This document shows positions 39,631-64,000 of a stretch of 64,000 nt of DNA, piece after piece. The notes under the pieces were generated by a model. That model made no database searches. It was given only the letters and a program-made list of their open reading frames with translations, and was not told the DNA's origin. The translations under genes were made by a program, and so were the position numbers. The DNA is from Pirellula sp. (GTDB lineage Bacteria > Planctomycetota > Planctomycetia > Pirellulales > Pirellulaceae). Numbering within the stretch: position 1 is the first letter of the stretch; each line of letters opens with the position of its first letter. The stretch covers positions 8,463 through 72,462 of the forward strand of contig JALOQS010000019.1 in assembly GCA_025459355.1 (NCBI GenBank). Direction: 5' to 3'.

Positions 39631-39688
39631 GCTGGGCTCCGTTTCGTGTTGAAACGCTTGGCCTGGTTGCTTGAATGGAAGTGTTGAC

Positions 39689-40930: not shown

Positions 40931-40931
40931 G

Positions 40932-43785: not shown

Positions 43786-44058
43786 GCAAACGCGACAATT
43801 CGCCACAAAACACCATTCAACGTGCAGCATCACCGGCAAATCGTTCTGCGATCCGCAGGCAGCCGGGCCGATTGTTTAATGTTCTTTTGTTTTTTCTTAG
43901 AGCCAATCTAACGGTTACTCTTTTTTCCTTGGCGCATTAGGCTATCTTTATAATTTGCCCTACTACTCATTTCGATCGCGTTTCGATCATCGGCGTGAGT
44001 GTGTGGAGGCAACAATCCCTCCTTAAGAAGCTCACTTACACGTTTTTCATTGGACAAC

Positions 44059-46533: not shown

Positions 46534-46572
46534 TGGTTTCGCTCGAAGCCAAGTTCGTCGTTCACGGGGCGG

Positions 46573-48072
46573 CTATTGAACAAACAGCTGCTCCGATTCG
46601 GTAAGTGGCTCGTCGTTTCTTATCTGTTTATGCAAAACGTCGACGTCGGCATCGGACGCATCGATTCCCAGTGATTTGCGGTCGCGGATTCTTTGTTCGA
46701 GAACGCTGACATGGTTCCGAAAATCCAAAATGCGAAAAGGTATGTCGAGCGACTTGGCCAGATCGCGAAAGCGGGTCCGCTCCGCTTGCTTTAAGAATGT
46801 AGCGTCGACCAGCACCGAAAAGCCACAATGAAGCAATTCCCTGGCCAAACTCCAAAGTGACCGATAGGTGGCTTCGGTGGCGCTAATGCTATAGATCTCT
46901 TGTCGATCTTCGGCTTTGATATGCGATCCGAACTCGGAATGGGATAGGTGAAACAGTCGTTTACGCTCCACATCCGATCTTAGACGAATCATCCCTAATT
47001 CTCGAATAGCCCAGCGGCTGCCATGTGTCTTTCCACTGCCACTGAAACCGTGAGTGATCCAAAGTTGAGGCTTGTGAATAGCAGTGAATTCCAGGGCTAA
47101 ACTCAGATAATTAGAAGCGGCGTTAACTTCATCATTCCGGATGGGGCTGGTCTGAGGGATCTGCTCGGCACGCATTAAAGCCACCTTGGCACGCACCATC
47201 GCGCGATAAACCAGATACCATTTCAAGACCGACAAACCATGGTAATCGCCCGATTCCGCGAGATAAGCGTTCAGCATCAGCCATGCGAGACCGTTCTTTT
47301 TTCGTTCCATCAAATCCATAACCAGAAAAGCAAGATCGCTCATGGTATCGATACAAGAAAGTTCATCGTTGAACTCGATGCCGTCGAACAAGGTCCAATG
47401 ATCGCGAAAATAGACCACGTTGTTGCAGTGCATATCTCCATGGCATTCCCTGACCCAACCTAATTGCTCACGAATGAGAAATCGTTCACGCAAAACGGAC
47501 CATTGAGCATTGGTCCACTCTTCAACTTTAGAGAGAGTTGTCGCGTCGAGCGAGAGACTAGATCGTCTGATGGATTCGAAGTTCTCAGCAGCCCGGTCGT
47601 GAATCGATTGCAAACTGCCTGATCGTTGACTCGTTGCCGACGTTGCCCCACGATGAAATCGAGCAATATTCTTTCCCAGTTGTTCTATTTCTTGTTCCGA
47701 GACAACTCCCGACTCCAAGCGTCGACTCAGGAGTGATTCCGCAGAAAATCTTCTCATGCGAACTGCAAAATCAATCGGATTAGCATCGCCATCCACGCGA
47801 TACATTCCGTCTTCGCTGGTGATCGGAACGACATCGATATAGAGTTCCGGCGCAAACCGCTTGCCCAAATTCAGCTCTTTGACGCAAGCCGAATGACGCT
47901 TTTCGAGTGTGCTATAGTCCAGGAAATCATTGATGATCGGCTTTTTGATCTTGTAAGCAAAATGCCCCGCTAAAAAGACCCACGATATGTGTGTCTCGTT
48001 CAGCTCTACAGATTCTGAAACGGAATGGGGATAGCTCGATGGATTGAGAAGCGACTCTGGTTGCAAGCTCAT
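46573..48072 (-). CDS. Bifunctional aminoglycoside-phosphotransferase-like / AAA_33 kinase protein
   Basis: ETHISWVFL..AYKIKKP, RECHGDMH.NN, FDGIEFN, GFSGSGKT, RSDVERK, DATFL and DASDAD. Confidence 0.9.
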   Translation of the reverse strand: MSLQPESLLNPSSYPHSVSESVELNETHISWVFLAGHFAYKIKKPIINDFLDYSTLEKRHSACVKELNLGKRFAPELYIDVVPITSEDGMYRVDGDANPIDFAVRMRRFSAESLLSRRLESGVVSEQEIEQLGKNIARFHRGATSATSQRSGSLQSIHDRAAENFESIRRSSLSLDATTLSKVEEWTNAQWSVLRERFLIREQLGWVRECHGDMHCNNVVYFRDHWTLFDGIEFNDELSCIDTMSDLAFLVMDLMERKKNGLAWLMLNAYLAESGDYHGLSVLKWYLVYRAMVRAKVALMRAEQIPQTSPIRNDEVNAASNYLSLALEFTAIHKPQLWITHGFSGSGKTHGSRWAIRELGMIRLRSDVERKRLFHLSHSEFGSHIKAEDRQEIYSISATEATYRSLWSLARELLHCGFSVLVDATFLKQAERTRFRDLAKSLDIPFRILDFRNHVSVLEQRIRDRKSLGIDASDADVDVLHKQIRNDEPLTESEQLFVQ

Positions 48073-48095
48073 GAATCAACTCCTCGATGTAGGTG

Positions 48096-48218
48096 TTAGT
48101 TAGCAAGCAGTTTGCGGGTAATGAGAACGATTACGACCGCCAGAACTGCGGTTAAGATCCAGAACTGGCGTTCCGTCAACAAATACTTGCGACCCTTATC
48201 ACTTGGGTTTGCGGTCAT
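48096..48218 (-). CDS. 40-aa single-TM small protein
   Basis: AAGGAG RBS 6 nt before ATG 48218; MTANPSDKGRKYLLTERQFWILTAVLAVVIVLITRKLLAN. Confidence 0.55.
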   Translation of the reverse strand: MTANPSDKGRKYLLTERQFWILTAVLAVVIVLITRKLLAN

Positions 48219-48556
48219 ATTGTGCTCCTTGGTGAGGTTGCTCGTGGAGAACGAGTCGCAAACCCCATTCCGAAACAACTAGATCTGGAAAATTGTCTTG
48301 CAAAGCTATTGTTATCCGAGGTACCTTTCTTCAAACATCTGATAGGTTATCTCCGTATCAATTGGCAGACCGCATTGGTTTGGAGGATTTGTGAGTGTGC
48401 GAATGGGGCTGTGCCAAATCGCCGCAATCGTGCGACCATGGGGGCTGCTTTGACACATTGCACTCGCGCCACTCATCGAAACAAAGTTAAGATGAGTACA
48501 ATGGAAAACGGATGGGAATGGTCAATCACTTCTTTCGCGATCAGCTACAAGCTCGA

Positions 48557-49330
48557 ATGAACTCACATAACGATCACAAACGGCATGATACCCCTAAGCA
48601 GGTCGGAAGACCGAGTTACTTTCTTTCTGATTTGCATCTTTTCTCCAGCCGATCAACCGCAGCTGCATACGAGTCCGAGATGAACCGATGCATCCAGACT
48701 GCGCATACCGTCATACTTGGAGGCGACATTTTTGACTTCAAATGGAGTCGGTACGCGACCCTTAGGGCATCTGTTAATGAAGCAGTTCGTTGGCTTGAGG
48801 ATCTTGTTACCCAGTACAAAGATTGTTCCTTTTATTACCTTCTCGGCAATCATGACTCTCATCCAGATTTCGTGCTTGAGCTAGACCGTTTGGCCTTTCA
48901 GCATTCAAACTTGGAATGGCAGCCACATTTGCTGCGGTTGGGAGCGTGTGTTTTTTTGCACGGCGACGTGATCGATGGAGGGTTAGATCACCAATCCATC
49001 GATGCTCGTCGACGCAAGCATGAGGACAAGCCTTTACCGATGGCTTATCGACATTGGCTTTACGATGCAGCAGTACAAGCCAAACTGCATTGTTTGGTTG
49101 CTAATGTTGCTCGAAGACATGGATGGGTGCTCAAGAAGGTATACCGTTATCTTGCGGAACAAGGCTTGGAAGCAAAGACGGGAATCAAAGACGTTTACTT
49201 CGGCCACACGCACCGTCCGCTTCGATCCGTAGAGTATCGAGGCTTACGATTTCATAATGGTGGAGCGTCCATTCGCGGGGTATCGTTTCAAATCATCCCG
49301 ACACACCTTACCGATCCTGCTATACGATGA
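48557..49330 (+). CDS. Metallophosphoesterase (LpxH/YbbF-like calcineurin fold)
   Basis: SDLH, GDIFD, GNHD, HGD and FGHTH motifs; start uncertain (48512-48557). Confidence 0.85.
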   Translation: MNSHNDHKRHDTPKQVGRPSYFLSDLHLFSSRSTAAAYESEMNRCIQTAHTVILGGDIFDFKWSRYATLRASVNEAVRWLEDLVTQYKDCSFYYLLGNHDSHPDFVLELDRLAFQHSNLEWQPHLLRLGACVFLHGDVIDGGLDHQSIDARRRKHEDKPLPMAYRHWLYDAAVQAKLHCLVANVARRHGWVLKKVYRYLAEQGLEAKTGIKDVYFGHTHRPLRSVEYRGLRFHNGGASIRGVSFQIIPTHLTDPAIR

Positions 49331-50826
49331 ACCAATCCGCAGTAGATTCGATAATCGAAACGTTGGAGCAGGATGAACCGCTATTTTGGACTTGGGTCGT
49401 TTTATTGATTCATGTCGTTGTAACGGGAATGCTGGTCGCCCGCATCATCATGAGCAATCGTTCCGTGGGAGCAACGCTATCGTGGATATCGGTCATGTTT
49501 CTTCTGCCAGCGATTGGACCGATCATTTATTTGCTCATCGGTGAATTGAGACTTGGAGCCAAACGGGAAAAGCTCGTCAAAGGATTACGTGGCGCAACAC
49601 GACGTCGATATCACGCGTTAGATCGTCCCGATCTTCGTGTCGATTGGCAAGGCTCGAGTGAAGACTTTGAATTGATTGCGCGAGCTGGTCATAGAATGTT
49701 CGATGTTCCTGCGTTACCGGGCAACCGTCTCGTGTTGTTCAGTGATTGGCAATCCGTATTTGATAAGTTGATTGAGGACATTAACCATGCAAAAGTCAAT
49801 TGCGATTTGGAGTTTTACATATGGCATCACGCTGGTCGAGTGCTTGAAGTCGCAGAGGCATTGGAGAGGGCAGCATCGCGCGGTGTAGTCTGCCGATTAC
49901 TGCTGGATGATATGGGAAGCCGTCGATTTTTGCGAAGTGCCGAGGCGAAACGCATGCGTCAAGCGGGCGTGCAAGTTCAATCCGCCTTGCCTGGTGGTCT
50001 CTGGAGAATCCTGTTTGTTCGTTTCGATCTTAGGCTACATCGTAAGATTGTGTTGATCGACGATCAAATCGCCTGGACCGGGAGCTTGAATCTCGTTGAC
50101 CCTCGTTACTTCAAAAAAGAAGCGGGCGTTGGACAGTGGATTGATGCAATGACTCGCATCGAAGGTCCTGCGGTTGAATCTCTCGCCGTAACCTTTCAAG
50201 CAGACTGGTATGTCGAGACCGATTCCACGGAGCCTGATTTGCCCGATATCACCGGTGATCAGCCGGTTCGAAAAGTTGGTGCCACCATCATCCAAGCACT
50301 CCCGTCTGGACCCGCTTATCGAGTCGAGGCGATTGAACGATTGCTGATTACCGCCATCTACACCGCCAAGAAAGAGTTGATCATTACGACGCCCTACTTC
50401 GTTCCTAGCGAAGCATTGCAAATGGCATTGGCTTCTGCAGCGCTTCGGGGAGTTAAGGTGATCGTTATCCTGCCGGCGAAAGTTGATTCGCTTTTGGTTC
50501 GATGGGCGAGTCAAGCCTTCAAAAATGAATTGATGCAATCGGGTGTGTTTATCGCCAAGTTCTCCGGAGGATTATTGCATACCAAGAGCGTCACGATAGA
50601 CGGAAACGTTAGTCTGTTTGGTTCGTTGAATATGGACCCGAGGAGTTTTCGATTGAATTTTGAGATTACGTTGGCGGTCTACGATTCACTGTTTACGAGT
50701 CATCTCAGGCAATTACAGCAAAGCTACCTGGATCAATCCGAAATCATCGATGCCACGCAATGGGCGAAAAGACCTGAATATATTGGGGGAGAGGAATCTA
50801 AAGGTCGATGCAGTCTATCAGCCTAG
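49327..50826 (+). CDS. cls: Cardiolipin synthase
   Basis: Two N-terminal TMs, two HKD motifs (HRKIVLID, HTKSVTID), PSGP, TPYFVP and RSFRLNFE. Confidence 0.95.
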   Translation: MNQSAVDSIIETLEQDEPLFWTWVVLLIHVVVTGMLVARIIMSNRSVGATLSWISVMFLLPAIGPIIYLLIGELRLGAKREKLVKGLRGATRRRYHALDRPDLRVDWQGSSEDFELIARAGHRMFDVPALPGNRLVLFSDWQSVFDKLIEDINHAKVNCDLEFYIWHHAGRVLEVAEALERAASRGVVCRLLLDDMGSRRFLRSAEAKRMRQAGVQVQSALPGGLWRILFVRFDLRLHRKIVLIDDQIAWTGSLNLVDPRYFKKEAGVGQWIDAMTRIEGPAVESLAVTFQADWYVETDSTEPDLPDITGDQPVRKVGATIIQALPSGPAYRVEAIERLLITAIYTAKKELIITTPYFVPSEALQMALASAALRGVKVIVILPAKVDSLLVRWASQAFKNELMQSGVFIAKFSGGLLHTKSVTIDGNVSLFGSLNMDPRSFRLNFEITLAVYDSLFTSHLRQLQQSYLDQSEIIDATQWAKRPEYIGGEESKGRCSLSA

Positions 50827-50827: not shown

Positions 50828-53800
50828 TTACTTTTGCCGAAGTCCGCCGTATGCTCGAACCAAGGCCCACAGTTTAGAAAGTGTGGAGGACTCTGTTGTA
50901 GCGGCTGAGACGTCGTTCTGGAGCGTTACATTGCTATCGAATAGTTCGGCTTGTGAACGTGACGTGGCCGCATCGTTGCGATTGGATTCAAACACGATGT
51001 TAGAATCGTCGGAATCCATGGCACCCAATTCACGGAAGTCAACATTGCTCCAATCGATCTTCTCCACTGTCGGTAACGTCACATACTGGAACGGATTGTC
51101 GTTCTCAGGTGCTGACAGTCCGATAGTCGTGTTCTTGCCAAACTCTGTTGCCAGTGACTCTAGATCGTTAACCGTTTGACCGATCTCAGCTTCGCCCCGA
51201 ACGGTGCCGGTGGATGTTGTCTCGGTGACCGGCCCATCGGTTTCAGGGGCTTGAGCTGCGGCCTCTGCTTGAGGAGGTGGCGCTATCGTCTCTTGGTTCT
51301 GATTCGCTAGAAGCGAATTGAACAGTGCGCCGACGAGCTCATTCTTATCAGCAAACGCTAACATCTCGACATCGACCAATCGGTCTACACCATCTGGAGA
51401 TCCAGGCCGCAGATCGGTGACCACGAGCTTACCATCTGGTGTACGATCAAATTGGTAATCACTCATGTTCCCAGAGAACTTCGCAATATCGATGCCCTCA
51501 CCGCCGTCCAGTTGGTCGTCACCTTGGCCACCCACCAGTAGATCTTCACCAGATCCGCCTGAAATTCGGTCGTCCCCTCGATTGCCAACCAACATGTTAG
51601 CTTCGTTATCACCAACCAAAGTATCATCAAAGGATGATCCTACGACTCCTTCGACGTTTCGAATCGTATCTCCCTCTGCTGCTCCTCCTCGGCCTTGTTG
51701 TTTATCCAAGTTGACTTCAACAGCCTCGGCAGATTGTGAGTAATCTACAACGTCTTGTATGCCGTCTCCTCCATCCAGAACGTCGGCTCCACTGTCGCCG
51801 ATTATGACGTCGTTACCATCACCTGCGAGGATCGTATCCGAGGCACTGGTCCCTTTCAATACGGAGCCGTCACTGCCTCCCTCGATGGTTCTGGAGTTTG
51901 CAGAGATTGCGATTTCGATCTCACGAGTCGCAACTCCACCTCGTCCGTCGGATACCTCGATGGTTACCTTCTCGATCGGTCTATCGACGAAACTGAACTT
52001 GGCTTGATCGGTGATTCGCAGTTCATTGCCTACCGCTACGAATGACTTGGCATTTTCACCAACCACGCGGAAGCTCAGGCTCTTGTCGTCAATATCACTT
52101 GCGGAAAGCTTGGCCACGACTTCGCCTGGCTGAACGTTTTCCACGATCGTCGTGTTGTCGATTACGATGTCATAGGGATTATCGTTTACCTCTGCGATGT
52201 CGACGTTGAACGTCTTGGTAATCAATAAGGTCTCGCCCGTTGCTGACTCTGTCGCGGTGGCTTCCAAGGTCAAGTTGACTTGGCCATTGAAGTCCTTGGG
52301 TGCGTTGAGTGCAATATTGCCAAGCTCGGATTGCGCGACATTCCAGGAACCATCTGCGTTGCGTGTGCCAGCAGAAAGCGTGAACCCTTCAGGCACTCCC
52401 TTGATGGCTAATTGCATGGTCTCGCTACCGTCGATATCGCTCAAGCTGGCCGCGAGATCGAGCTTAATCGCTTGGTCTTCCAATCCCGCAACATTACCGA
52501 CTGTCACGTTCGCTGCGTCAGCGACTGCCCCTACATTAACTTCAACCGTTGCCGTTGAGGTCAGTCCGCCGGCGTCGGTCACGGTGTAAGTAAACTTGGC
52601 TGGTCCTGAGTAGTTCGCATCCGTCTTGAATTCAATTTGCCCATTATCGAGCAACCTGACTGTTCCGTTTTCTGCACCTGACACTCCTACGATACGAAGC
52701 GTATCGCCGTCGAGATCGGTGTCGTTACCCAGCAACTGACTCGCGTTGAGGTTCAACGTTCCATCTTCACTCACGGTAAAGGAGTCGTTCGCGGCTGTGT
52801 TGGTTTCGTTGACGTCATCGACCGCGATCTGAACACTACGCGTCCAAGTTTCGTTGCCATTGGTGCCACTTAGCTTCAGCTCGAGCTTAGCCGCTTCTTC
52901 GAAGTTAAGCGATACGCCATCCTTTAGCTTTAGATTGCCGTCTCGCACTTCGAAGCGGTCGTCGCTCACCGTTACCTTGGTGTTACTGTCTACGGCGGTT
53001 ACTCTGCCGACGATGGCTCCCGCCACGTTTTCCGCGATGCGAGCATCGGTTGGTCGAGGAGCATCGCTCGTGTTGAAGCTCATCGTGCCAGACCAGTACA
53101 TGCCTTCTTGGCCGCGTATTTCATCACCGCCACGATGATACTTAGCACTTGGGCCTTCGGCTTCGAATCGCTTGCCGTTGATTTCGATGGCGTCAACGTA
53201 CATATTGCGATCGGTCTCCGCCTTGCCTTCGAATGCATCGTTGATGAAGCGAACGGAAACGTTATTCAATTGCTGACCAGGGGCCACTTCGAGTTTCAGT
53301 TCTTGGAACCCACCAGCACCTTGAGCTGCGATGCGATCAATGGTCGCCCAATCGACGACACCGGTGGTGATCTTCTCACCGTTAGCCCACACTTCGTAGC
53401 GTGGTGGTTCCGCTCGTTGGCCCGCGTTGTTACCCATTTCACCGCCCAATCGGATAGTCAATTGGTTCGGCTCTGCTGTGGCTGATGCGAGTTGGACTGG
53501 CTCGACTGTCTTGGCAACTGTGTCGATCGGTAACCATGCATCGGCAAAGGCTAATGTCTCGGTGTTGATCACGCGGTCGGTTCCGTCAGGCGCACCTGGT
53601 CGCAGGTCTCGAACAGTAATCGAACCGTCTGCATTGCGAGTTACATCGTAGTCGGCTGATGATCCACTAAAGTTCGCTCGGTCAAAGCCCTGGCCACCAT
53701 CAATGAAGTCGTTGCCTGAACCGCCGATGATAACATCATTGTCCAATCCACCGTTAACAATATCATCTCCTGAGCCGGCGTTGATCGTATCTGCACCTCC

Positions 53801-56800
53801 TTGGCCATCGATGCGGTCATTACCCGCACCTGCGTCGATGTTATCGTTACCTGTTTGTAGGCTGGCTGGGGTTACCAGCCTGAACATTTGAACATTGTCG
53901 ATGTAGCCACCTAAGCTATCGCTCGTACCGATGGCACGAAACTCAAGAGTGCCCTGTGCACCATTGCCATCTACTTGGTAGCTCAAGGTCCTCCATTGGG
54001 TATCGCGTAGTCCTACACCGTCACCAACAAGCGTATCGATCTTGTTGCCATTCCACCAAACTTCTACGCCATTGCTAGCCGCAGGAACCCCTGGACGAGG
54101 TGAATACTGAACCGAGATTTCATACTTTTGCCCAGCTTCGGTCGCGACGACTTGCTGCATGCCAGAGTTGCCATGGCTATCTAGCTCAACAAGGCTAGAA
54201 CCATCGGCTGCACCGCCAGCAACCCCTTCTTGAATCTCAATACCGTTACCGCTAGTCGTTCTCCATCCATCAACACTGTTGAAAACCGACCAAGTGCGAT
54301 TGGCGGTCAAATTCGTTTCGAAGCTACCGTTAACGATTAAGTTATCGCCTGTCTTGACCAGTGTCCCAGCAGGGATGTTTTCGGGATTTGTGTCGCCGAA
54401 GATCACATCATCGCCAGCACCGGCATTGATTTGGTCGTTTCCAGACCCACCATCGATCGTATCGTTAAAACTGGAGCCGGTAATTCTATCGTTGCCAGCG
54501 TCTCCGCTGAGTCTATCGCCAGCGGTGTCATTGAGTGCACCTGCGGTGATCACGTCGTCACCATCTCCGCCACTGACGGTATCAGCACCTACGCCGCCAT
54601 TGAGTATGTCGTTTCCAGCACCACCTCGGATGTTGTCATTTCCAGCACCGCCATCGATCGTATCAGCAGCACGAGTTCCAATCAGATTGTCGTTCGCGGC
54701 AGAACCACGACGAACCCAGCTACCTTGTTCGCTGACCAAGGTTTGATCTGCAAACCGAAGAGATTCCACATTGATGACTCGGTCGACGCCATCAGCCGTG
54801 CTTCGATCGATAACAGTCGTTGTTCCATCTGCATTGCGAACGATGTCGTAGTCAACACGGTTGCCAGAGAATACGGCAACATCATTGCCGCTGCCACCGT
54901 CGATAATGTCATTGCCTGAGCCACCCGTCAACGTGTCGTCGCCATCCTCACCAAATAATCGATCATCGCCAGCACCTCCGATCAAGGTGTCGTTGCCGTG
55001 CCCGGTCCATATGGTGTCGTTACCATTACCGCCATCGACGACATCAACACCAACTCGGCCTGCAAGTTGACTGTTGTCGAAGACATCGTTTCCATCCCCT
55101 AGTCGTGCGTTGGAACCAGCCGCTGCACCGTAAATATAGTCGTCTCGGGAAGAACCGATCACGTTCTCGATATTGGTATAGGTGTCGCCAGCAGCATCGC
55201 CAGTCAAACCTCCAGCCTTTTGATTCGCATGTGGCCCATGTTGATCGGTATCGTCAAGCTTAACCGTTACACCCTGAGCGGATCTGGAGTAGTCCACTGT
55301 GTCGACTCCAGCTTTGCCAACAAAGGCTTCAGCCCTGGCACCTGCAGCGAAGGTATCGTTGCCTGCTGTCCCCAGCACTTGACGACTAGTGATCGTTACC
55401 GCAGTCGTTGCCTCGACAACTTGAGACGCAGTAACCTTTAAGTTATCAATGCCCCAAGCTTCATCGCCTGGGCTTTGATCTAACATGGAGCCAAAGCCCA
55501 GCTTGAACTGACCGTTTACGACGGGAATAGTGAGCGTGTACCGATGTCGTTGATCCGCCCAACCGCTAAAGCCTTGGTTTTGACGGCCATCATCAAGTGC
55601 AACAGAATTTGCTTTGTTGCCATCGCGTTGATACGTGCTGTGCTCTGTAAAGAACGTCTGGGCCGATACAACCTGATCATTAGCGAAGACTCGGAATTGT
55701 TCACCATCCCAAGAATCGAGTTCCAGGAAGTCGAATTGCACTTGAACTTCGGTTACACCCGGAGGAGCATCAAAGGTCTTGAAGACAGATTGACTGCCTC
55801 GATCATTGCCCGCGACTTCACTGAAGCGACCCAAGAAATTGGTGAGCGATGCACCGCCGTTGGATACCGCATTGCTGTTCCAACCGGATGCTCCGTTCTC
55901 AAAATCTTCGGAATAGATCGTACCCTTGGTCTCAATCGTTGACTTGACCGTTATATTCGCGACCCCCTCAAGCTCGCCGGTCGCTTGAAGATTATTCAGT
56001 TGTTCCGGGGTTAGTTGCCATGATCCGTCGGCTAGCTTTACACCCGCATTAAGCGACATTGTTGCGGGCACGTTCTGAACGACAACCGATTTCAGCGTTG
56101 TTCCTTCAGGACCGACTGCGTCCAGTTTCAGATTCACTGGTCCGTCTGCTAGATCACCCGTCGCTGTTGCGCTCAAGCTAACGGCGGATTCGATCTCGAG
56201 TTCGATATTCGATGTGATCGATGTGTTGGCTTGAATCACCAAGTTATCGATCGCCCAGGCCTCATCGCCGATGCTCTGATTAAGTGTTGAGCCAAAGCCC
56301 AGCTTGACCATTCCGTTTTCAACTGGCAATACGATGCGGTAACTATGTCGTTGATCTTCCCAACCACTAAAGCCTTGGTTGCCAAGATTTTTTGTATCGG
56401 ATACAGCGAATCGACTTCCTTGGTCAATACCTCGACCGGCACCTTGGAAGGTGTCGTTGGCAACGAGTTTGTCATTACCGAAGACTTGGAATCTTTCGCC
56501 GTCCCATGAATCAAGTTCGAGCATATCGAACTCGACAACGACCTCCGTCACTCCCTCAGGAACTGCGAAGGTCTTGAAGACACCTTGCTGTCCGCCGGTT
56601 CCGCCAAATCGGCCCAATGCATTAGTGAAGGAACCGCTATTCTCGGTGGTATTGATATTCCATCCCTTCGCGCCGGATTCAAAGCTCTCGCTGAAGAGCG
56701 GAGTTGGGCTAGCAACGTTCGTCGTCACTTTGAGATCAAAGTTACCTGTGACCAAGCTATTGGTGGTGACCGTTAGGTTCTTAAGGTCCGCTGCATCGAG

Positions 56801-59062
56801 AACCCACTCCCCTTGGCCAACATCGCGACCCGCAGATAGCTTTGCACCGGCTGGTAGCCCTGATACCCTGACCTCAACACCATCAGTCGGTAGGTTAGTT
56901 CCGAGATTCAAAGACAACGGAATCGCTTGTCCGGCTGTGATTTCCACATTGGCAGGGAGCAACGAAGCCACGGGGCTGAGATCAAAGTCTGGTAAGTTTG
57001 CGGCAACGGACGGATCGTACATCGCGAATCCGCCATTGGATGTCCTCACGTAGTCGATATCGGTAAACTCAACGGTAAAAGACCTGTCGCCGGGCAAAGT
57101 AACAACGGCGCGATTGTCGGAAATATCGATATCGCTTGGCGCGAACCTGCTCAAGTCGATTGTGTTGTATCCGTTAGCCGCTTCGATAGTATACGTTGCA
57201 CCTGGCGTTGGATTAGCGAACGCAAACGTGTCGTCATGGTTCGAACCTACGATTCGTTCAATGCTATTGAGCGTATCGGTATCAGGACCGCTGGTAACAA
57301 CGCCCGTTGTGATATCTGCCACGATACCTCGGGTGGAGTCGCTATAGGAAGCCGTGTCCCGACCATCGCCTCCGTTAAGCGTGTCGTTGCCTGAGCCACC
57401 TTGCAATAGGTCGTTCCCAGTTCCACCGTTTAATACATCATTGCCCATACCGCCAAACAATTGATCGTCACCGCCGTTGCCGAACAATTTGTCGTTTCCA
57501 GCACCACCGTTCAGAATATCGTTACCCTGCGTAACAATAGTCGGGGTGACACTGATCTTGGTAACAACGGGACCAAAGAATGGACCGTTGACAGCATTGG
57601 CTTGAGTTTGACTCGCGAAGACGATTTTTGTGGACTCGGATGTTGCCACGAACGTGAATTCACGAGTCTCATAACCCATCGATTGGCGAGACCAGTTCGC
57701 AGGTCGATTCCATTCAAATCTTGCTGAGCTATCGCCGGCTGTCAATTGCAAGCTCTTGGTTGGTGAGCCTCCATCACAATTGCCAGCCATGTCGAATCGA
57801 ACGGTATAGGTCATGCCGGGTACTGTGTCCAGTTCTTGGCTGATTGCACCTGGAGAGCTACCGTCAAGATCAATGCTTCCGCCCGCGCCGTTGTGTTCCC
57901 AGTAATTGCCGATAACGTCTACTGTTCCGCTTTCAACTTTCCAGCCACTGAACTCATTACCTGCAGTGAGCGTGCGGAAATGATTGGTAACACCGGTGTT
58001 AGTAAAGTTGCCATCCGTTACGAGATTCGTTGTATCGCCATCACCATTGTCCCCGATAAGAACATCGTCTCCCTCACCGCCGTTGAGTTCATCGTTTCCA
58101 GCGCCACCAACGAGCGTGTCATCGTTATTGACGGAGAATAACCGCACGTTGTCGAGAGCGGTTCCGATACCATCATTACGTCCTACTTCGACGAATCGCA
58201 AGGTGTTCGAACCATCGCCGGAACCTGCTTCCAACTGGAATGTATGCTGTTTCCAGCCATCAGCAAATGTGCCGCCAGTCGTCCCGACTTTTTCTCCATT
58301 CCAGTAAACTTCCATGACGCCGGTGCCTTCTGTGCCACGGCTTCGCGCATCAAAGCTCAATTCATAAACATCACCGCTCTCGAGTCCATCAATCCTTTGT
58401 GAGAATGCGATGCCTCCCGGCGAAGCATCCGTGTCGAGCCAGTGTTCGCCGTCGGTTGCGCCAACATTTCCATGTGCTGCATCGACGACTTCGAATTGGG
58501 GGCCGCTTTCTAGATTCCAGCCCTCAAGTTGTTGCATACCTCGCCATCCACCAGTGGCGATATCACCACCGGTGAATTTTTCGAAGCTGCCATTTTGAAT
58601 GTAATTCTTGCGATCACCATCGCCGGTTAGCTTGTCATCACCATCTCCGCCGGCGAGCACATCGCTTCCTTCGCCGCCGTTGAGAGTATCATTCCCAGCA
58701 TTGCCAACGAGTTGATCATCGCCAGTGCCACCGTTGAGGGAATCATTACCCAGTCCACCGAACAGCTTGTCATCGCCCGAGCCACCGAACAGTTGATCAT
58801 TTCCTTCATTTCCAAAAAGCTTATCGTCCCCAGCTAGACTATTGAGAACGTCGTCCATGGCCGATCCATTAGCGGTGTCGTTCCCCTCCGTTGCATTCGC
58901 CTCTGGCTCATCGGTTGCAGAATCAACCCATGTTGCTGACATTAGGATTCTTGGCTCCAAAATGTCGGTTGTGAAGCTGGCGTTGGATTTCTCAGGTGCA
59001 GCTGTTCGTTTTTGTTTGTTGTTGCTGTTGATGTTGGTGGGGGCAGATTTTTTGTTGGACAT
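50828..59062 (-). CDS. Giant (2744 aa) LEPR-xLL / RTX-repeat / cadherin / multi-carbohydrate-binding surface protein
   Basis: LEPRILMS at aa 35-42; many GGxGxDxL Ca-binding nonapeptides; three DUF642-like modules; two ELDSWDGE modules; a CBM60-like DRNMYVD module; cadherin/Ig repeats. Confidence 0.9.
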   Translation of the reverse strand: MSNKKSAPTNINSNNKQKRTAAPEKSNASFTTDILEPRILMSATWVDSATDEPEANATEGNDTANGSAMDDVLNSLAGDDKLFGNEGNDQLFGGSGDDKLFGGLGNDSLNGGTGDDQLVGNAGNDTLNGGEGSDVLAGGDGDDKLTGDGDRKNYIQNGSFEKFTGGDIATGGWRGMQQLEGWNLESGPQFEVVDAAHGNVGATDGEHWLDTDASPGGIAFSQRIDGLESGDVYELSFDARSRGTEGTGVMEVYWNGEKVGTTGGTFADGWKQHTFQLEAGSGDGSNTLRFVEVGRNDGIGTALDNVRLFSVNNDDTLVGGAGNDELNGGEGDDVLIGDNGDGDTTNLVTDGNFTNTGVTNHFRTLTAGNEFSGWKVESGTVDVIGNYWEHNGAGGSIDLDGSSPGAISQELDTVPGMTYTVRFDMAGNCDGGSPTKSLQLTAGDSSARFEWNRPANWSRQSMGYETREFTFVATSESTKIVFASQTQANAVNGPFFGPVVTKISVTPTIVTQGNDILNGGAGNDKLFGNGGDDQLFGGMGNDVLNGGTGNDLLQGGSGNDTLNGGDGRDTASYSDSTRGIVADITTGVVTSGPDTDTLNSIERIVGSNHDDTFAFANPTPGATYTIEAANGYNTIDLSRFAPSDIDISDNRAVVTLPGDRSFTVEFTDIDYVRTSNGGFAMYDPSVAANLPDFDLSPVASLLPANVEITAGQAIPLSLNLGTNLPTDGVEVRVSGLPAGAKLSAGRDVGQGEWVLDAADLKNLTVTTNSLVTGNFDLKVTTNVASPTPLFSESFESGAKGWNINTTENSGSFTNALGRFGGTGGQQGVFKTFAVPEGVTEVVVEFDMLELDSWDGERFQVFGNDKLVANDTFQGAGRGIDQGSRFAVSDTKNLGNQGFSGWEDQRHSYRIVLPVENGMVKLGFGSTLNQSIGDEAWAIDNLVIQANTSITSNIELEIESAVSLSATATGDLADGPVNLKLDAVGPEGTTLKSVVVQNVPATMSLNAGVKLADGSWQLTPEQLNNLQATGELEGVANITVKSTIETKGTIYSEDFENGASGWNSNAVSNGGASLTNFLGRFSEVAGNDRGSQSVFKTFDAPPGVTEVQVQFDFLELDSWDGEQFRVFANDQVVSAQTFFTEHSTYQRDGNKANSVALDDGRQNQGFSGWADQRHRYTLTIPVVNGQFKLGFGSMLDQSPGDEAWGIDNLKVTASQVVEATTAVTITSRQVLGTAGNDTFAAGARAEAFVGKAGVDTVDYSRSAQGVTVKLDDTDQHGPHANQKAGGLTGDAAGDTYTNIENVIGSSRDDYIYGAAAGSNARLGDGNDVFDNSQLAGRVGVDVVDGGNGNDTIWTGHGNDTLIGGAGDDRLFGEDGDDTLTGGSGNDIIDGGSGNDVAVFSGNRVDYDIVRNADGTTTVIDRSTADGVDRVINVESLRFADQTLVSEQGSWVRRGSAANDNLIGTRAADTIDGGAGNDNIRGGAGNDILNGGVGADTVSGGDGDDVITAGALNDTAGDRLSGDAGNDRITGSSFNDTIDGGSGNDQINAGAGDDVIFGDTNPENIPAGTLVKTGDNLIVNGSFETNLTANRTWSVFNSVDGWRTTSGNGIEIQEGVAGGAADGSSLVELDSHGNSGMQQVVATEAGQKYEISVQYSPRPGVPAASNGVEVWWNGNKIDTLVGDGVGLRDTQWRTLSYQVDGNGAQGTLEFRAIGTSDSLGGYIDNVQMFRLVTPASLQTGNDNIDAGAGNDRIDGQGGADTINAGSGDDIVNGGLDNDVIIGGSGNDFIDGGQGFDRANFSGSSADYDVTRNADGSITVRDLRPGAPDGTDRVINTETLAFADAWLPIDTVAKTVEPVQLASATAEPNQLTIRLGGEMGNNAGQRAEPPRYEVWANGEKITTGVVDWATIDRIAAQGAGGFQELKLEVAPGQQLNNVSVRFINDAFEGKAETDRNMYVDAIEINGKRFEAEGPSAKYHRGGDEIRGQEGMYWSGTMSFNTSDAPRPTDARIAENVAGAIVGRVTAVDSNTKVTVSDDRFEVRDGNLKLKDGVSLNFEEAAKLELKLSGTNGNETWTRSVQIAVDDVNETNTAANDSFTVSEDGTLNLNASQLLGNDTDLDGDTLRIVGVSGAENGTVRLLDNGQIEFKTDANYSGPAKFTYTVTDAGGLTSTATVEVNVGAVADAANVTVGNVAGLEDQAIKLDLAASLSDIDGSETMQLAIKGVPEGFTLSAGTRNADGSWNVAQSELGNIALNAPKDFNGQVNLTLEATATESATGETLLITKTFNVDIAEVNDNPYDIVIDNTTIVENVQPGEVVAKLSASDIDDKSLSFRVVGENAKSFVAVGNELRITDQAKFSFVDRPIEKVTIEVSDGRGGVATREIEIAISANSRTIEGGSDGSVLKGTSASDTILAGDGNDVIIGDSGADVLDGGDGIQDVVDYSQSAEAVEVNLDKQQGRGGAAEGDTIRNVEGVVGSSFDDTLVGDNEANMLVGNRGDDRISGGSGEDLLVGGQGDDQLDGGEGIDIAKFSGNMSDYQFDRTPDGKLVVTDLRPGSPDGVDRLVDVEMLAFADKNELVGALFNSLLANQNQETIAPPPQAEAAAQAPETDGPVTETTSTGTVRGEAEIGQTVNDLESLATEFGKNTTIGLSAPENDNPFQYVTLPTVEKIDWSNVDFRELGAMDSDDSNIVFESNRNDAATSRSQAELFDSNVTLQNDVSAATTESSTLSKLWALVRAYGGLRQK

Positions 59063-59138
59063 TTTTAGTTCTTTTGAGACGTAGTTTGTAGCAGGGGTTT
59101 AAAGGGGAGGAGAGATTTTGAGATTGTTAAGTCAAGGC

Positions 59139-60176
59139 TTAGGTCCGTTGGTCCGTTGAAAGACGAACGGCAAAACCAGCAGGTAGATGTTTGTTTAGAT
59201 TCTCGATTTCGACCACAACTCGAATGGTCTGCGTAGCGGCATCGATCAAGGGCGCAACAAAAACAACCTTCGCTTCGAGTTGAGGCGTTCCCGGCATTTC
59301 GGCTTGCAGAACGACTAATTCACCGACACGGATTGATGCCACACGGGAGAGCGGCACGTAAAGATCAGCTCTTAGCCTGGTGATATCAGCGATCTTGACT
59401 ATCGGGGCACCACGCGAAACCGTCTCACCGAGATGTGGATAAATTCTGATCACGATTCCTTGGAAGGGAGCACGAATTTCATGAGTATCCAGTTTTGCCT
59501 TTTCGACCTCTAGCCTCGCGACGGCTTCCCGTTGGATTTCAAATCCTTCTTTGAGTGTGGCTTGTGCTTCCGCTATTCGGCTGCGTGCTTCGTCGACTTC
59601 GAGACCTGAAGCAGCCTGCTTGCTCGCCGCTTGTTGAATGCGGTTTAAGTATTGATCGGCCAGCGACACCTTGGCTTTCGCTGCTTCCATCATTGCTTGA
59701 CGGTCTGCGGTTGATTGGGCTGCATGCACCGAAGCTAAGGCAACGCGATTGTCGATCAGTCCCATGACAGTATCGGTATCAACGGAATCCCCTTCGGCAA
59801 CAAATAGCTTCCAAAGAGGCCCATCTGCCGCCGCTGCAATCTCCGCTACGTGAAGAGGATGAGCAATTCCCGGTAGCATTTCGATCGATTGTGAATTGAG
59901 TTCAGTGCCTGATAAAGTAGTCGAACTCTCGCGCGTAGTCGGTGCTATGGCGTTTTCAAACGACCCGTCCCTGTTGGTTCTGTGCATCGAATCGGCCATC
60001 GAATCAGCTTCATAAGGGGCGACATTCGCTGGGACTGACACAAGGGAAACCGGAATGTTTTGCTTTGGATCGCTATCGACGACCACAGGCGTAGATCTTC
60101 GTGTCCAAAGCCCTAACCCAGCGCCTGTGAGCGCAATCAAAACTATGATGAAATTGCCATGGGATAGAATTCTCAA
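59139..60176 (-). CDS. Efflux RND/HlyD-type periplasmic adaptor
   Basis: N-terminal TM, VAEGDSV, coiled hairpin, IRAPFQG..GETV, PLIDAATQTIRV and LPAG; TTG start. Confidence 0.9.
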   Translation of the reverse strand: MRILSHGNFIIVLIALTGAGLGLWTRRSTPVVVDSDPKQNIPVSLVSVPANVAPYEADSMADSMHRTNRDGSFENAIAPTTRESSTTLSGTELNSQSIEMLPGIAHPLHVAEIAAAADGPLWKLFVAEGDSVDTDTVMGLIDNRVALASVHAAQSTADRQAMMEAAKAKVSLADQYLNRIQQAASKQAASGLEVDEARSRIAEAQATLKEGFEIQREAVARLEVEKAKLDTHEIRAPFQGIVIRIYPHLGETVSRGAPIVKIADITRLRADLYVPLSRVASIRVGELVVLQAEMPGTPQLEAKVVFVAPLIDAATQTIRVVVEIENLNKHLPAGFAVRLSTDQRT

Positions 60177-60497
60177 GCTCGACTACCTTTTTTTTGGGGG
60201 GTTAGGAAACGGTTTGCCATGCTTCAGGCCTTAGCCAATAAAGATCGCTGGTACGGTCCTAAGGTCCGTCAAGGGATGTAGCTCACGAGGTTGACTCGGA
60301 GGGGGCGAAAGGCCGTTTCAAAGAATTGAAAATAAGAGGGGCAGGTGAAGTTTAACGATTGTTCGGAAGGTTCGGATTGCTTGGGGGCTAACTCGCTTTC
60401 CTTCAGAACCGAAGATGCCGATTGTAATTGCCGAAGAAGCGTCAGAGACTAATTATTCAACGGTATGGACGTCGTGGCACGCCAGGCGCTTTAGTCA

Positions 60498-62027
60498 ATG
60501 AAAACTCACGACGCTTCAACAATCGAACTCAGACATTTCGTGTCTCGGTCCCGCCGAGAGTTCGGAATCGCGATTGTTTCGCTAGCGTTCGGTGCCTATG
60601 GCTGCAGAGTCGGTCCTGACTTCGTTAACCCCACGCCCCCTTCGCTAGGGCCATCCTTTCAGCAGTCGGCGAATCAAGAAGTGGTCCAACCATTGGACGA
60701 GCAAACCTCGCGATGGTGGACTTACTTTGATGACCCAATTCTTCAGATGCTTATTGCCGATGCGAGTCAACAGAATCTTACCGTTCGTGAAGCTTACTAT
60801 CGCATTGCGGAATCCCGAGCGTTGCTGGGGCGTGCAAAATCCCAGTTCTTTCCACAAGTCAACGCGACGAGTGACAATAGCTATCGGAGGCTTAGCCAGA
60901 ACAATAATGATGTCATCAGCTCAAACAATCAAAACGCGTTTTGGAACTTATCCAATGGATTCGAATCAACTTGGGAAATCGATCTTTGGGGACGTTTAGC
61001 CCGCGGCGTCGAGGCTGCTAACGCTGAGTTATTGGCCCAGCACGAGTCGCTCAATGACATTCGCGTCACATTGTTAGCCGACGTTGCCACGACTTACATT
61101 CAAATTCGGGTTTTGCAGCAACGATGGACGATTGCCGATCAAAATCTAGAACTGCAGAAACAGACCCTGCATATTGTTCAATCACGCCAGGAAGCGGGAA
61201 TTGTCGGTCAGCTCGACCAATCTGAAGCGGAGTCCAATGTGGCTGTTACGACCGCGTCCATTCCACCAATTCAGCAAGAGTTACAGGTGGCTTTGTATCG
61301 ACTATCCGTACTGTTAGGGCAAGTACCAGGAGGCGAAATGGGACTGGAAAACGGGTTTGGCCAGCTGCCGATGACCGTTGTAGAAGCGGTGCAACCTGGA
61401 ATGCCTGCCGAACTACTTACCCGCCGACCCGATATCAGAAAAGCCTACTTCGACGTCATGGCTGCCAATGCACGGATTGGCATAGCTGTCGCCGATCGTC
61501 TGCCTCAACTCACGATTCGAGGAAACATCTCCGTCGACGCTCGCGATGTCAATGTTTTATACAGTTCCGGAAGCCTAGCTCATAATGTTGGTCCCGGCTT
61601 TCGATGGGACATTCTCAACTTTGGCCGCTTGAAACGAAACATAGAGGCCCGTGAAGCGAGCCATCAACAGAGCGTTATCAGATACGAAGCGGCAGTGCTT
61701 CGAGGTGTTCAAGAAGTGGAGTCAGCTCTCGTCGAATACCAACGACAAAAAGAACGCACCTTAGAACTTGAAAAAGTGGTAACGGCTACCAATCGTTCTG
61801 TCGAAATCAGTCTCGCTCGTTATGAACAGAATCTCATTACCTTTGACCGCGTGCTTGATGCTCAGCGAAGCCTAGCGGTCGCACAAGGAAACTTGATCGC
61901 TGCGCGTGGCGATATTCTCTTTGCATTGGTGAAGATCTATCGAGCGCTCGGCGGAGGCTGGGGAGAGGGCGAACCATCTGTTTCGCCATCGGCCGAGGCT
62001 ACGAATTCGCCTGTCGGATCTGATTAA
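60498..62027 (+). CDS. OprM/NodT-type outer membrane efflux lipoprotein
   Basis: Lipobox AYGC-RVGPDF, WWTYFDDP.L, WEIDLWG, P.ELLTRRPDI and YRALGGGW. Confidence 0.93.
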   Translation: MKTHDASTIELRHFVSRSRREFGIAIVSLAFGAYGCRVGPDFVNPTPPSLGPSFQQSANQEVVQPLDEQTSRWWTYFDDPILQMLIADASQQNLTVREAYYRIAESRALLGRAKSQFFPQVNATSDNSYRRLSQNNNDVISSNNQNAFWNLSNGFESTWEIDLWGRLARGVEAANAELLAQHESLNDIRVTLLADVATTYIQIRVLQQRWTIADQNLELQKQTLHIVQSRQEAGIVGQLDQSEAESNVAVTTASIPPIQQELQVALYRLSVLLGQVPGGEMGLENGFGQLPMTVVEAVQPGMPAELLTRRPDIRKAYFDVMAANARIGIAVADRLPQLTIRGNISVDARDVNVLYSSGSLAHNVGPGFRWDILNFGRLKRNIEAREASHQQSVIRYEAAVLRGVQEVESALVEYQRQKERTLELEKVVTATNRSVEISLARYEQNLITFDRVLDAQRSLAVAQGNLIAARGDILFALVKIYRALGGGWGEGEPSVSPSAEATNSPVGSD

Positions 62028-63999
62028 CGAGTCTCGCTGCTCGACGTAACAGTACACTTCCCAGCGTTTCTCGCTCGCTTTGTAACTTCACCATCGACGA
62101 CATGCCCACTTTTAGAGGTCTTTCGAGTTGTTGAATGGACTTCTCGTCGATCTCAATGATGACGTCGAAAAAGTTTTCGCCTGCCATGTTATCTTGAGAC
62201 ACGGCGATATCTCCGCCACCGGTATGGGTGAGAGCGGCCTCTTGGATTTTCTTAGTTCCCTCTATATCGCCGCTAATGATTCGCCCCGACAAGGTGCACT
62301 CGGTGTTACCAACCAGTGTAATGCTAACGGGGTTGTCTCGGACCGATTCAATACTAGACCATTGATCGGCAGTTAACATGACACGCACAATCCATGGACC
62401 CCGACAGATCGATCCCAACGATTCCCCTTGCTTGATGAACTTACCAATCTTGGGCGTTTCGGGAGCCGGTATAAACTCTCCATCGTATTTAGCAGCCAAA
62501 TCAAGCTGACCAATCTGCGACTCAAGATGCTCTAACTGCTTACGCGCATTTTCCAGCTGAATTTGCGTTTGCTCGGATTGTTGACCAGGCAAGTTCAATT
62601 GAGACTGGAGCTGAATCTTGAGTTGGCAGACGAGGGACTGCAATTCACATCGCTGCGTCTCTAGCTCAGCGTTTTCGAGGCGATACAAAACGCGATTCGC
62701 GTCAACCCTTTTTTCTTTATCAATAGACGTACTTACCAGAAATCCACTAACCGAAGCACGCACCGACTGCTCTTCTTGGCGATGAACAATTCCTAATGAT
62801 TGAACGCTGCCTGCGATGGGAATGGCGAATATACCTACCATCAAAGCGACGGTTAATCCTCCAGCCACGCTGACCGCACGAACTCGAACGGCCGCTAACT
62901 CCTCTGAGCAGGCAACATACAGTACCCATTTCTTCAGAGTCCTAAGGACAGGAATACCCGAAACAACGAACGCAATTACCGGTCCAATCACTGGAATCGA
63001 GAGAGTAAGTAAGGTCGCAATACCAATGGCAACCGTCACCTGATAAATCATACATGCCAATCCGAATGAGATCATCCCGATTTGAACAGATCGTTTTTCT
63101 GAGACGCCCTTGGGCTTAACGCCGTACAAAATCCATTTTATGAAGCCGGTAGCGGACGCCTTCGCGTCGCGGTGCAAATTAGGGAAGTTAAGTAGATCGG
63201 AAAGAATAAAGTATCCATCGTAACGCATGAGCGGATTCGCGTTGAAGCCGATCGTAACGACAGTGGATAGTACAATTGCATACTGAGCAGCCGAGTGCAG
63301 TTGACCAGTTTCGGTACATAGCCACACCACGATCGCCACCATCGCCAGCATGGACTCAAAGTACATACCCGCCAACGCGACGATCATTCGATGCCATCGA
63401 TTAGGAAAGCTCCACGAGGACGATGCGTCAACATAAGCGCATGGTGTCCCCATCATGATCATGGCTCCCATCTCGGGAACCGTTCCACCAAATCGCTTGC
63501 AGGCGTATGCATGTCCGAGTTCGTGAAAGGTCTTTAGCCCAACGAGCAAGGTCCAGAGGATGGGCACATTACTCAATGTCAACATCGTGCCTAGCGGATT
63601 AACAAACTCTTTCCAATGAATCAATAAAATTCCGCCGCATGTTGCAACACACGCGAGCCAGATGAATAAGGCCGTTTTAGTAAAGAGAGGAGCAGCCAGA
63701 TGTACCGTGCTTCCAAGCCATTTGTCAGGTTTCGCAAGTGGAACCTTCATGAACATGAACTTGAGAAACTTGCCCTTTTTCTGCGCTTCCATTCGTTGTT
63801 TGTATCGGTTGTAGAGCGCCGAGCCATCGGAAATCGGCAGCGTTAGCAAACCCATCTGATGCAGGTGGACAACGAAACGATAGAAGTCATCGGTCTGTTC
63901 AACCATTATTCGATTCTTCTTGATCAGCTGCGACACGGTTTCTCGCAATGTTCGCGTCTGATCGATCGAAATGAATAGTTGATAGTCCTGTGCTGAGAA
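61999..63999 (-). CDS. Site-2 protease (M50)-HlyD fusion protein, N-terminus truncated by window end
   Basis: HELGH (HExxH), ALAG and FNANPLMRYDGY in the TM region, followed by a biotinyl/coiled-coil HlyD-like domain; the frame is open to 63999. Confidence 0.88.
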   Translation of the reverse strand, partial: FSAQDYQLFISIDQTRTLRETVSQLIKKNRIMVEQTDDFYRFVVHLHQMGLLTLPISDGSALYNRYKQRMEAQKKGKFLKFMFMKVPLAKPDKWLGSTVHLAAPLFTKTALFIWLACVATCGGILLIHWKEFVNPLGTMLTLSNVPILWTLLVGLKTFHELGHAYACKRFGGTVPEMGAMIMMGTPCAYVDASSSWSFPNRWHRMIVALAGMYFESMLAMVAIVVWLCTETGQLHSAAQYAIVLSTVVTIGFNANPLMRYDGYFILSDLLNFPNLHRDAKASATGFIKWILYGVKPKGVSEKRSVQIGMISFGLACMIYQVTVAIGIATLLTLSIPVIGPVIAFVVSGIPVLRTLKKWVLYVACSEELAAVRVRAVSVAGGLTVALMVGIFAIPIAGSVQSLGIVHRQEEQSVRASVSGFLVSTSIDKEKRVDANRVLYRLENAELETQRCELQSLVCQLKIQLQSQLNLPGQQSEQTQIQLENARKQLEHLESQIGQLDLAAKYDGEFIPAPETPKIGKFIKQGESLGSICRGPWIVRVMLTADQWSSIESVRDNPVSITLVGNTECTLSGRIISGDIEGTKKIQEAALTHTGGGDIAVSQDNMAGENFFDVIIEIDEKSIQQLERPLKVGMSSMVKLQSERETLGSVLLRRAARLVNQIRQANS

Positions 64000-64000
64000 G

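Follow-up and report, generated by a model that had tools for sequence, protein, structure and literature searches.

How does a protein of 2,744 residues leave a planctomycete cell when it has no Sec signal peptide, and when the genes beside it encode periplasmic adaptors, an outer-membrane channel and an intramembrane protease? The question is raised by a stretch of 64,000 nucleotides, called here the window, of the Pirellula sp. assembly GCA_025459355.1 (G000, 76.5% complete; contig JALOQS010000019.1, hereafter C138), whose closest relatives carry the labels Pirellula or Planctomycetaceae. At the right end of the window, and continuing beyond it, lies a cassette of six linked genes (Table 1) that is likely to be an export machine: three periplasmic adaptors, one of them fused to a protease, an outer-membrane channel, a predicted sensor of cyclic di-GMP (c-di-GMP), and the giant surface-type protein, which is tagged by an N-terminal leader of the LEPR-XLL type. 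For LEPR-XLL proteins thousands of residues long, an export route is not established in the literature that we searched. On balance we favour the reading that the cassette carries out leader-directed export and processing of the adjoining giant protein without a dedicated ATPase, through a predicted conduit of adaptors and outer-membrane factor (OMF). The system is real and conserved, and is a variant of a module known from computation only. An earlier note, made from the letters of the window, had proposed a type-I-like conduit devoid of an ABC transporter, with the M50-HlyD fusion protein as inner-membrane part and the LEPR leader as tag; the co-occurrence of leader and cassette, the invariant protease motifs and a predicted RRE domain speak in favour of that proposal.

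Translation confirmed the basic leader with its LEPRILMS motif and the RTX nonapeptides of the giant protein, both already reported in the note. The leader has no Sec-type hydrophobic core, because the best 12-residue hydropathy over its first 80 or so residues is merely 0.88. Its match to the LEPR-8K family (NF012209) is borderline: the N-terminal 70 residues score 17.0 bits, which equals the cut-off of 17, residues 21-100 give 16.8 bits, and a scan of the whole 2,744-residue protein does not list the family. An alignment of 17 leaders found beside cassettes of the same branch (defined below) gave the consensus LExRI[LM][LM]S[AG]TWxD, in which L, E, R and S belonged to the pattern used for selection, and T, W and D lay outside it. 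Family scans of the remainder of the protein revealed RTX blocks, DUF642/choice-of-anchor C, CBM60 and Big_9/cadherin-like domains, an acidic linker and a terminal helix; judged by these domains, the cargo is likely to be a glycan-binding adhesin. It holds 22 strict GGxGxDx[LIVF] nonapeptides and 17 PF00353 stretches, and is the sole open reading frame (ORF) of the assembly with at least two strict RTX repeats. About 17 further proteins of this assembly (about 18 overall) have LExR-type leaders, several of them ending in acidic helices.

The association between LEPR proteins and M50-HlyD, which the note had suggested checking, was then evident in a class of 131 genomes. M50-HlyD was present in 21 of these, and a leader match (E <= 1e-5) was found in 20 of the 21, two of these 20 leaders having been part of the search profile. 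Among the genomes devoid of a cassette, leader matches were found in at most 3 of 110, up to an E value of 0.02. In one genome (G527), leader and cassette lie on the same contig, 4.5 Mb apart, so the link is more than adjacency.

The putative reader of the leader is the M50-HlyD fusion. An AlphaFold2 model built from 99 homologues (mean pLDDT 85) displays three strands followed by three helices at residues 27-99, then a membrane region made of helices; the adaptor begins near residue 445. Residues 18-105 of the model matched a lasso-peptide B1 protein in complex with its leader (6JX3_B; Z 10.0, root-mean-square deviation 2.4, 84 of 85 residues aligned) and TbiB1 (5V1U_A; Z 9.5). The membrane part matched RseP (Z 9.3) and SpoIVFB (Z 8.9), and the C-terminal part the adaptors MexA, MacA and HlyD. 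The N-terminal domain is accordingly predicted by the model to fold like leader-binding RRE domains. The zinc-site residues of the HExxH and NxxPxxxxDG motifs are invariant across the homologues. Seven long helices are counted in the model between RRE and adaptor (a plain hydropathy scan gives only four), and with a seven-helix topology the RRE domain would be cytoplasmic and the adaptor periplasmic. Modelled from its single sequence, the N-terminal stretch of 116 residues gave a poor result (pLDDT 61) with no match above Z 5.5, and Foldseek with the full model returned adaptor matches only. For the RRE-M50 part (residues 10-345 plus zinc) paired with the leader, a complex prediction reached a median of 0.30, compared to a mark of 0.32, and is used as evidence neither for nor against.

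Fusions of an RRE domain with a site-2 protease are known from the biosynthesis of peptides that are made by ribosomes and modified after translation (RiPPs). The best NCBIfam relative of M50-HlyD is the daptide intramembrane peptidase, and its scores remain below the cut-offs of both RRE-M50 families (MpaP, 147.5 bits for a cut-off of 300; EpeP, 31.4 bits for a cut-off of 225). The daptide enzyme MpaP, a fusion of RRE and site-2 protease, is reported to remove a leader that has an ELExMEAP motif (10.1101/2023.03.08.531785), and the epipeptide enzyme EpeP is thought both to cleave and to export its peptide (PMC10885120). As far as the accessible parts of these reports go, the window protein resembles MpaP and EpeP in carrying an RRE-like domain on the N-terminal side of its M50 domain, and in a leader motif with an LE core; it differs from them in the fusion of this protease with a periplasmic adaptor and in its presumed substrate, a protein of 2,744 residues. 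No RiPP enzyme was recognised among the recurring neighbours of related cassettes, for which 125 stretches of DNA were inspected. We suggest that the RRE domain would bind the LEPRILMS leader in the cytoplasm and that the leader would then be removed by the membrane protease, two steps for which the daptide RRE-protease and EpeP offer a precedent.

The chain may then thread, N-terminus first, through a conduit of three adaptors to the OMF. Adaptor domains occur in three proteins of the cassette (the stand-alone adaptor, GAF-HlyD and M50-HlyD). The OMF scores 322 bits with the NodT family TIGR01845 and is not of the TolC subfamily; its assembly with the adaptors is a prediction. The families and motifs of adaptor, channel and M50-HlyD agree with the description given in the note; the channel gene, however, is on the forward strand, and the M50 gene runs past the window to a length of 717 codons. 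The arrangement recalls classical type I secretion (HlyB-HlyD-TolC; LapBCE/LapA) by its adaptor and OMF, by its RTX/Ig cargo free of a signal peptide, and by the C-terminal amphipathic helix of this cargo. In contrast to type I systems, the window cassette is without an ABC transporter, has three adaptors, outside TIGR01843, rather than one, and possesses an N-terminal leader and an intramembrane protease. Judged by the features that define type I systems it is not one of them, yet it likely works as a one-step conduit.

Site-2 proteases classically act in signalling, and the cassette might instead be a signalling or surface-retention complex that translocates nothing. The cargo would exit otherwise, and protease, GAF and PilZ domains would sense envelope contact or c-di-GMP and cut either the leader or the C-terminal helix. 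The protease class and the two sensory domains would fit such a role, as would the missing motor, an OMF that is mostly unlinked, and a genome in which a leader occurs without cassette (G514, described below). Three adaptor domains, one of them modelled and matching MexA, MacA and HlyD, together with a divergent OMF, point rather to a trans-envelope conduit; moreover, a Sec signal is absent from the cargo, and where scans were made no other type I system scored above cut-off. We regard a purely signalling complex as very improbable.

The core gene set is already in print. Kamneva, Poudel and Ward (2015) described it computationally, around a secondary SecA, and called its role unknown; the M50 protein was proposed as inner-membrane pore and SecA as motor, and the module genes were often unlinked (PMC4452313). 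The accessible part of that paper gives five clusters (M50, HlyD, GAF, SapC and a conserved hypothetical), with neither PilZ nor a cargo among them, and the labels of its S13 Fig include Chlorobium chlorochromatii among the carriers. Compared with the module as presented there, the window cassette has the same three adaptor-bearing proteins (M50-HlyD, GAF-HlyD and HlyD), an occasional OEP-type outer-membrane protein and no ABC transporter. Unlike the module, which is defined by its secondary SecA, the branch studied here has a PilZ protein, a NodT-type OMF and no local SecA; no SapC-like gene turned up among its recurring neighbours, where no profile search for SapC was made. The cargo link, a dispensable motor and a proposed two-ended address open this neglected export route to direct tests.

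This branch is distinct. In a quick tree, 37 SecA-less cassettes (31 with PilZ and 6 without) split from eight SecA2-linked ones with 99% SH-aLRT support; the rows of the tree were picked by similarity to the query and are a subset of the loci, and four paralogues of the Pirellula assembly stand on long branches. PilZ was present in 45 of the 54 metagenome loci that had at least 2.5 kb of upstream DNA, and five of the nine PilZ-less loci hold SecA2 and TolC instead. Conversely, none of six SecA2 loci has PilZ, none of 32 PilZ loci whose downstream DNA spans 2 kb or more has SecA2, and no PilZ was found around 10 further secondary SecA stretches. Within the M50-HlyD family, the window cassette thus falls into a branch of its own kind that bears PilZ. 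Its PilZ protein carries the motif set of predicted c-di-GMP binders, and could serve as a c-di-GMP switch for export or release.

At least one M50-HlyD was found in all 41 genomes of a search among relatives, and the close subtype of the window in only 8 of them (both counts include the Pirellula assembly itself). In a phylum-wide profile search, 14 of 401 genomes reached E <= 1e-170; their loci keep the order PilZ, GAF-HlyD, M50-HlyD, while the positions of the adaptor and giant genes vary. The Pirellula assembly holds five M50-HlyD cassettes, the four others being on contigs C167, C66, C119 and C172 (L010-L013), and C55 (L014) being noted as well. These four carry GAF-like and stand-alone adaptors. 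For the cassette of C119, a leader protein is encoded 1.2 kb downstream.

The second half of the proposed address is the C-terminus. The cargo of the PilZ-bearing branch has in common a short amphipathic helix of the type LWxxVRxxG with a charged end. The pattern was found in 31 of 40 cargo tails, compared to 54 of 2,048 ORFs of the Pirellula assembly. With a profile from which the window and six close relatives had been omitted, the window cargo still ranked first in this assembly (19.3 bits; next, 7.5). The motif is absent from SecA2-linked cargo, as judged from two tails by eye and from eight scored tails, none above 0 bits, which were those of large or leader-bearing ORFs adjoining SecA2 genes. 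We suggest that the helix, as the last part out, would be a retention anchor holding the adhesin on the surface. Some Pirellulales cargo near SecA2 and TolC (L226-L227, G034:C32; L230-L231, G037:C15) displays a different conserved end, LPAWxxxDPLP, after a hydrophobic stretch, which suggests a second branch-specific tail.

The same helix could be read in the opposite direction. The adhesin LapA is retained at the cell surface and released under c-di-GMP control, and in a Lap-like scheme the tail helix would be the export signal, the C-terminus would leave first, and the leader, last out, would hold the protein until RRE-M50 cuts it, PilZ relaying c-di-GMP. The logic parallels that of LapA, RTX repeats are frequent in the cargo of related cassettes, and the helix is conserved in the branch and missing from SecA2-linked cargo. 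Against this scheme, the leader is common to both branches and only the C-terminal motif is branch-specific. Furthermore, in type I secretion it is an ABC transporter that reads the C-terminal signal, and none was found here, and the RTX blocks are scattered over residues 93 to 2511 rather than clustered at the end. We therefore hold export with the C-terminus first to be unlikely. Cag_663 and Cag_665 of Chlorobium chlorochromatii, two LEPRxLL giants, are reported to leave the cell, which, with the listing of this organism among the carriers of the published module, we count in favour of leader-directed export; their export was assigned to SapC, TolC and HlyD, C-terminus first, with no role given to the leader in the accessible part of the report (10.64898/2026.03.19.712371). 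The window cargo shares with these, as far as they are described there, an N-terminal LEPR-XLL motif on a very large protein devoid of a known export signal; it differs by its extended ATWVD leader and its C-terminal helix.

Within the literature outside subscription journals, taken without bioRxiv supplements and several of the Kamneva et al. supplements, no paper was found that links the leader to M50-HlyD or describes the PilZ branch. PF07595 is merely named as a signal motif in two papers (PMC8567305 and PMC10952558), and a preprint on giant genes deals with SecA domains within Omnitrophota giants, without any mention of LEPR, HlyD or M50. A hit for 'M50' in PMC8277102 was discarded, as it is a residue number, irrelevant to the M50 peptidase.

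What powers the conduit? The earlier note placed a SecA-like energiser possibly beyond the window edge, and this was not found: no SecA or ABC gene lies directly next to the cassette, including past the edge. The genes beyond 64 kb did contain a further HlyD, for which the note had suggested looking, in the form of GAF-HlyD, along with PilZ. A SecA census was then made with a profile of nine divergent secondary SecAs, gene pieces being counted together (G273, frameshifted; G515, split over two contigs). All 24 genomes whose only cassettes are of the PilZ-bearing branch showed a single SecA locus, four of these genomes being assembled in one or two contigs. In the nine checked, the single SecA is of the housekeeping type, with the canonical C-terminal zinc tail, and every genome of the count has a housekeeping SecA. 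Among 15 branch-bearing genomes, nine have this cassette alone and a single SecA; secondary SecA genes occur in the remaining six, precisely those that also hold a further cassette type. A secondary SecA need not accompany the PilZ-bearing branch, since none was detected in the 24 genomes with a single cassette type. The housekeeping SecA of the Pirellula assembly (C402:4979-8707) has 1,242 residues and a long C-terminal part.

The note had seen no ABC ATPase in view; in fact, an operon following hemA within the window (38284-43785) encodes a MacA-like adaptor, a MacB-like permease, a separate ABC ATPase and a TolC-family protein. It lies 7 kb from the stop of the giant gene and is the sole ABC system seen near the cassette; such an operon did not recur as a neighbour in the 125 stretches. 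Clustering of 2,820 ORFs from these stretches yielded no recurring ATPase, the ABC matches being unrelated ABC-F and importer ATPases. No adjacent HlyB-type transporter that could be cognate to the giant protein was found next to the cassette, which agrees with the proposal of the note. The RTX protein might nonetheless be exported by a usual type I system whose genes lie at another place, or by the MacAB-TolC-type operon, leaving the cassette as a bystander. The RTX repeats, the incompleteness of the assembly and its five ABC exporters would allow for this, one exporter, of 738 residues, being weakly LssB-like (113.8 bits for a cut-off of 693). So would a C39-ABC exporter that lies 7 kb downstream in another genome (G388). 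That exporter is the only such case in the 125 stretches, however, and no LssB-type exporter passed the cut-off in five genomes. The type I HlyD family TIGR01843 reached at best 41 bits in the Pirellula assembly (cut-off 208.65) and was below cut-off in all nine other genomes. Of the five exporters, the two that were scanned proved to be a cyanophycin-associated one and one passing no family, and three were judged from context alone; a cyanophycin-associated ABC transporter lies at C147:13866-19385, beside a gene resembling cyanophycin synthetase. Finally, cargo and cassette stay together throughout the phylum despite a shuffled gene order. Export by such a separate system is, in our estimation, the least credible of the explanations considered.

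Returning to leader-directed export without a dedicated ATPase, three driving forces can be ranked. The first, which we hold with less than even confidence, would be threading coupled to translation, together with a ratchet made by calcium-driven folding of the RTX and Ig domains. The second, only slightly less probable, would be the housekeeping SecA or another unlinked ATPase, and the third, an unlikely one, proton-motive force acting through an unlinked partner. The most complete proposal would be a trans-envelope secretion system without a dedicated ATPase, with a RiPP-type leader-reading protease as gate, a conduit of three adaptors, signals at both ends of the cargo, threading during synthesis, and gating by PilZ and c-di-GMP. 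It is offered tentatively, as a rather doubtful whole.

A number of observations weigh against our reading, and the first of these concern energy. No energy source was found in the cassette or among the recurring neighbours of the 125 stretches. The Pirellula assembly itself holds one secondary SecA, on contig C215, which could serve the window cassette, and a secondary SecA was found in 40 of the 41 relatives searched, with a fragment in the last. Concerning the census, SecA2 was recovered in four positive controls, all four of which were part of the census profile; a first count, made at E <= 1e-40, was too strict and missed the divergent SecA2 of G198, and it has been superseded. The candidate finding that the SecA gene of C215 is broken (C215:19601-21672; L009, L036) was rejected: the contig from the probable source run has 58 more letters, which fit one frame. 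The apparent frameshift is likely to be an assembly error and the gene intact, on the evidence of one contig that is not independent of the assembly. The branch might be the module as published, its motor merely encoded at another locus, with a secondary or housekeeping SecA acting in trans and the energy supply being ordinary. Module genes are often unlinked according to Kamneva et al. (PMC4452313), and a housekeeping SecA is present in every genome of the count. Yet no second SecA was found in the 24 genomes that have only cassettes of this branch, and in the set of 15 genomes the secondary SecA goes with the other cassette type, two arguments that bear on the version with a secondary SecA. 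We consider a motor in trans quite improbable.

Other difficulties concern the parts and the cargo. The OMF, whose partnership with the cassette is a prediction, adjoins it in only 10 of the 125 stretches, and thus in about nine relatives, and in three distant genomes the best OMF match was merely 34% identical. The other four M50-HlyD cassettes of the Pirellula assembly are mostly without an adjoining giant gene. A genome that is 91% complete (G514) has an LEPRVLLAS leader on a frame of 13,664 codons (C97 near 8552, L206) and no M50-HlyD was found in it; two further genomes (G509 and G470) have leader matches without cassette, one holding an internal stop and one weak, and G489 has cassettes but no leader match. 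The genomes compared are 88-96% complete and come from few families, so that kin are not independent, and a first look at leaders scored only part of the candidates per genome. Nine of the 40 cargo tails miss the C-terminal pattern; among the 31 that match, seven are near-copies and one (L025) stands in a frameshifted tail. Both c-di-GMP motifs (RxxxR and [DN]xSxxG) are found in 62 of 79 PilZ proteins, being lost in one clade, mostly family f61, and some branch cassettes have no PilZ (L031, L032, L090, L091, L099 and L169). Since the motifs are degenerate in 17 of the 79 proteins and PilZ is lost at some loci, the proposed control by c-di-GMP would not be universal.

In the clade with degenerate PilZ (G182, L116, L119, L172, L175, L176, L177 and L179), two genes were observed just upstream of cargo or cassette: one for a conserved secreted-type protein of 340 residues without Pfam match, and one of about 900 codons that resembles a sensor kinase.

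Table 1. Features of the cassette. Positions are those of the window (64,000 nucleotides), unless preceded by the contig name C138.
Feature	Position	Strand	Basis
Giant cargo gene	50828..59062	-	ORF of 2,744 aa; family scans, repeat count
C-terminal amphipathic helix with basic end, LWxxVRxxG type, residues 2728-2744	50831..50881	-	
LEPRILMS core of the leader (residues 35-42), with ATWVD after it	58937..58960	-	Translation
Stand-alone periplasmic adaptor, RND_mfp subfamily	59139..60176	-	TIGR01730 passed; one N-terminal membrane anchor predicted
Outer-membrane factor, NodT/OprM-type	60498..62027	+	TIGR01845 NodT passed
Fusion of 717 aa: RRE-like domain, M50 intramembrane Zn protease, adaptor	61999..64000 in window	-	Full gene C138:70461-72614; PF02163 and adaptor fold
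Predicted RRE domain, in-window part (domain residues 18-105 of 717-aa protein)	63838..64000	-	
HELGH zinc-binding motif, H210, E211, H214	63511..63525	-	Invariant in 99/99 aligned sequences
NANPLMRYDG motif with third zinc ligand D312	63214..63243	-	N304, P307, D312, G313 invariant
GAF-adaptor fusion, 671 aa	C138:72619-74634 (outside window)	-	PF01590 + HlyD domains
Single-domain PilZ protein, RxxxR + DxSxxG motifs	C138:74544-75020 (outside window)	-	PF07238, 45.4 bits

The layout of the locus is given in Table 1. The start of the M50-HlyD gene is 152 bases beyond the window end, which cuts off part of the RRE-like domain; further upstream of this gene follow GAF-HlyD, PilZ, a ThiF-like gene and housekeeping genes, among which we take two, from their recognisable sequence, to be sucD and sucC. 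A polytopic membrane protein of 1,592 residues (C138:78629-83407) adjoins these succinyl-CoA ligase genes. The OMF gene is not in an operon with its neighbours, since its strand is the other one: it diverges from the adaptor gene, and its end overlaps that of the M50 gene head-on. In a related genome (G002) the order is apparently OMF, adaptor, giant, PilZ, GAF, M50, spread over two contigs; because the same block is found there in another order, the arrangement in the Pirellula assembly looks like a permutation of it. Scans for promoters and terminators did no better than chance, and DUF3467 was found in the assembly on contigs other than that of the cassette. On the other side of the giant gene (43999-50826), we take the genes to encode a membrane pyrophosphatase, a kinase-like protein, a metallophosphoesterase and a cardiolipin synthase, the stop of the last abutting that of the giant gene.

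The module described in 2015 had a proposed motor and no cargo, and the window locus ties a class of cargo to it. Since a branch of the family is maintained in genomes where that motor was not found, SecA2 is either accessory or replaced here by some other force. The six genes form a unit that can be tested through the two short motifs of the cargo, the three residues of catalysis and the two motifs of PilZ. An exporter of very large proteins that is gated by a protease and directed by a tag would, if true, be a new secretion principle and possibly a display tool, and it may bear on the many planctomycete proteins that have related LExR leaders.

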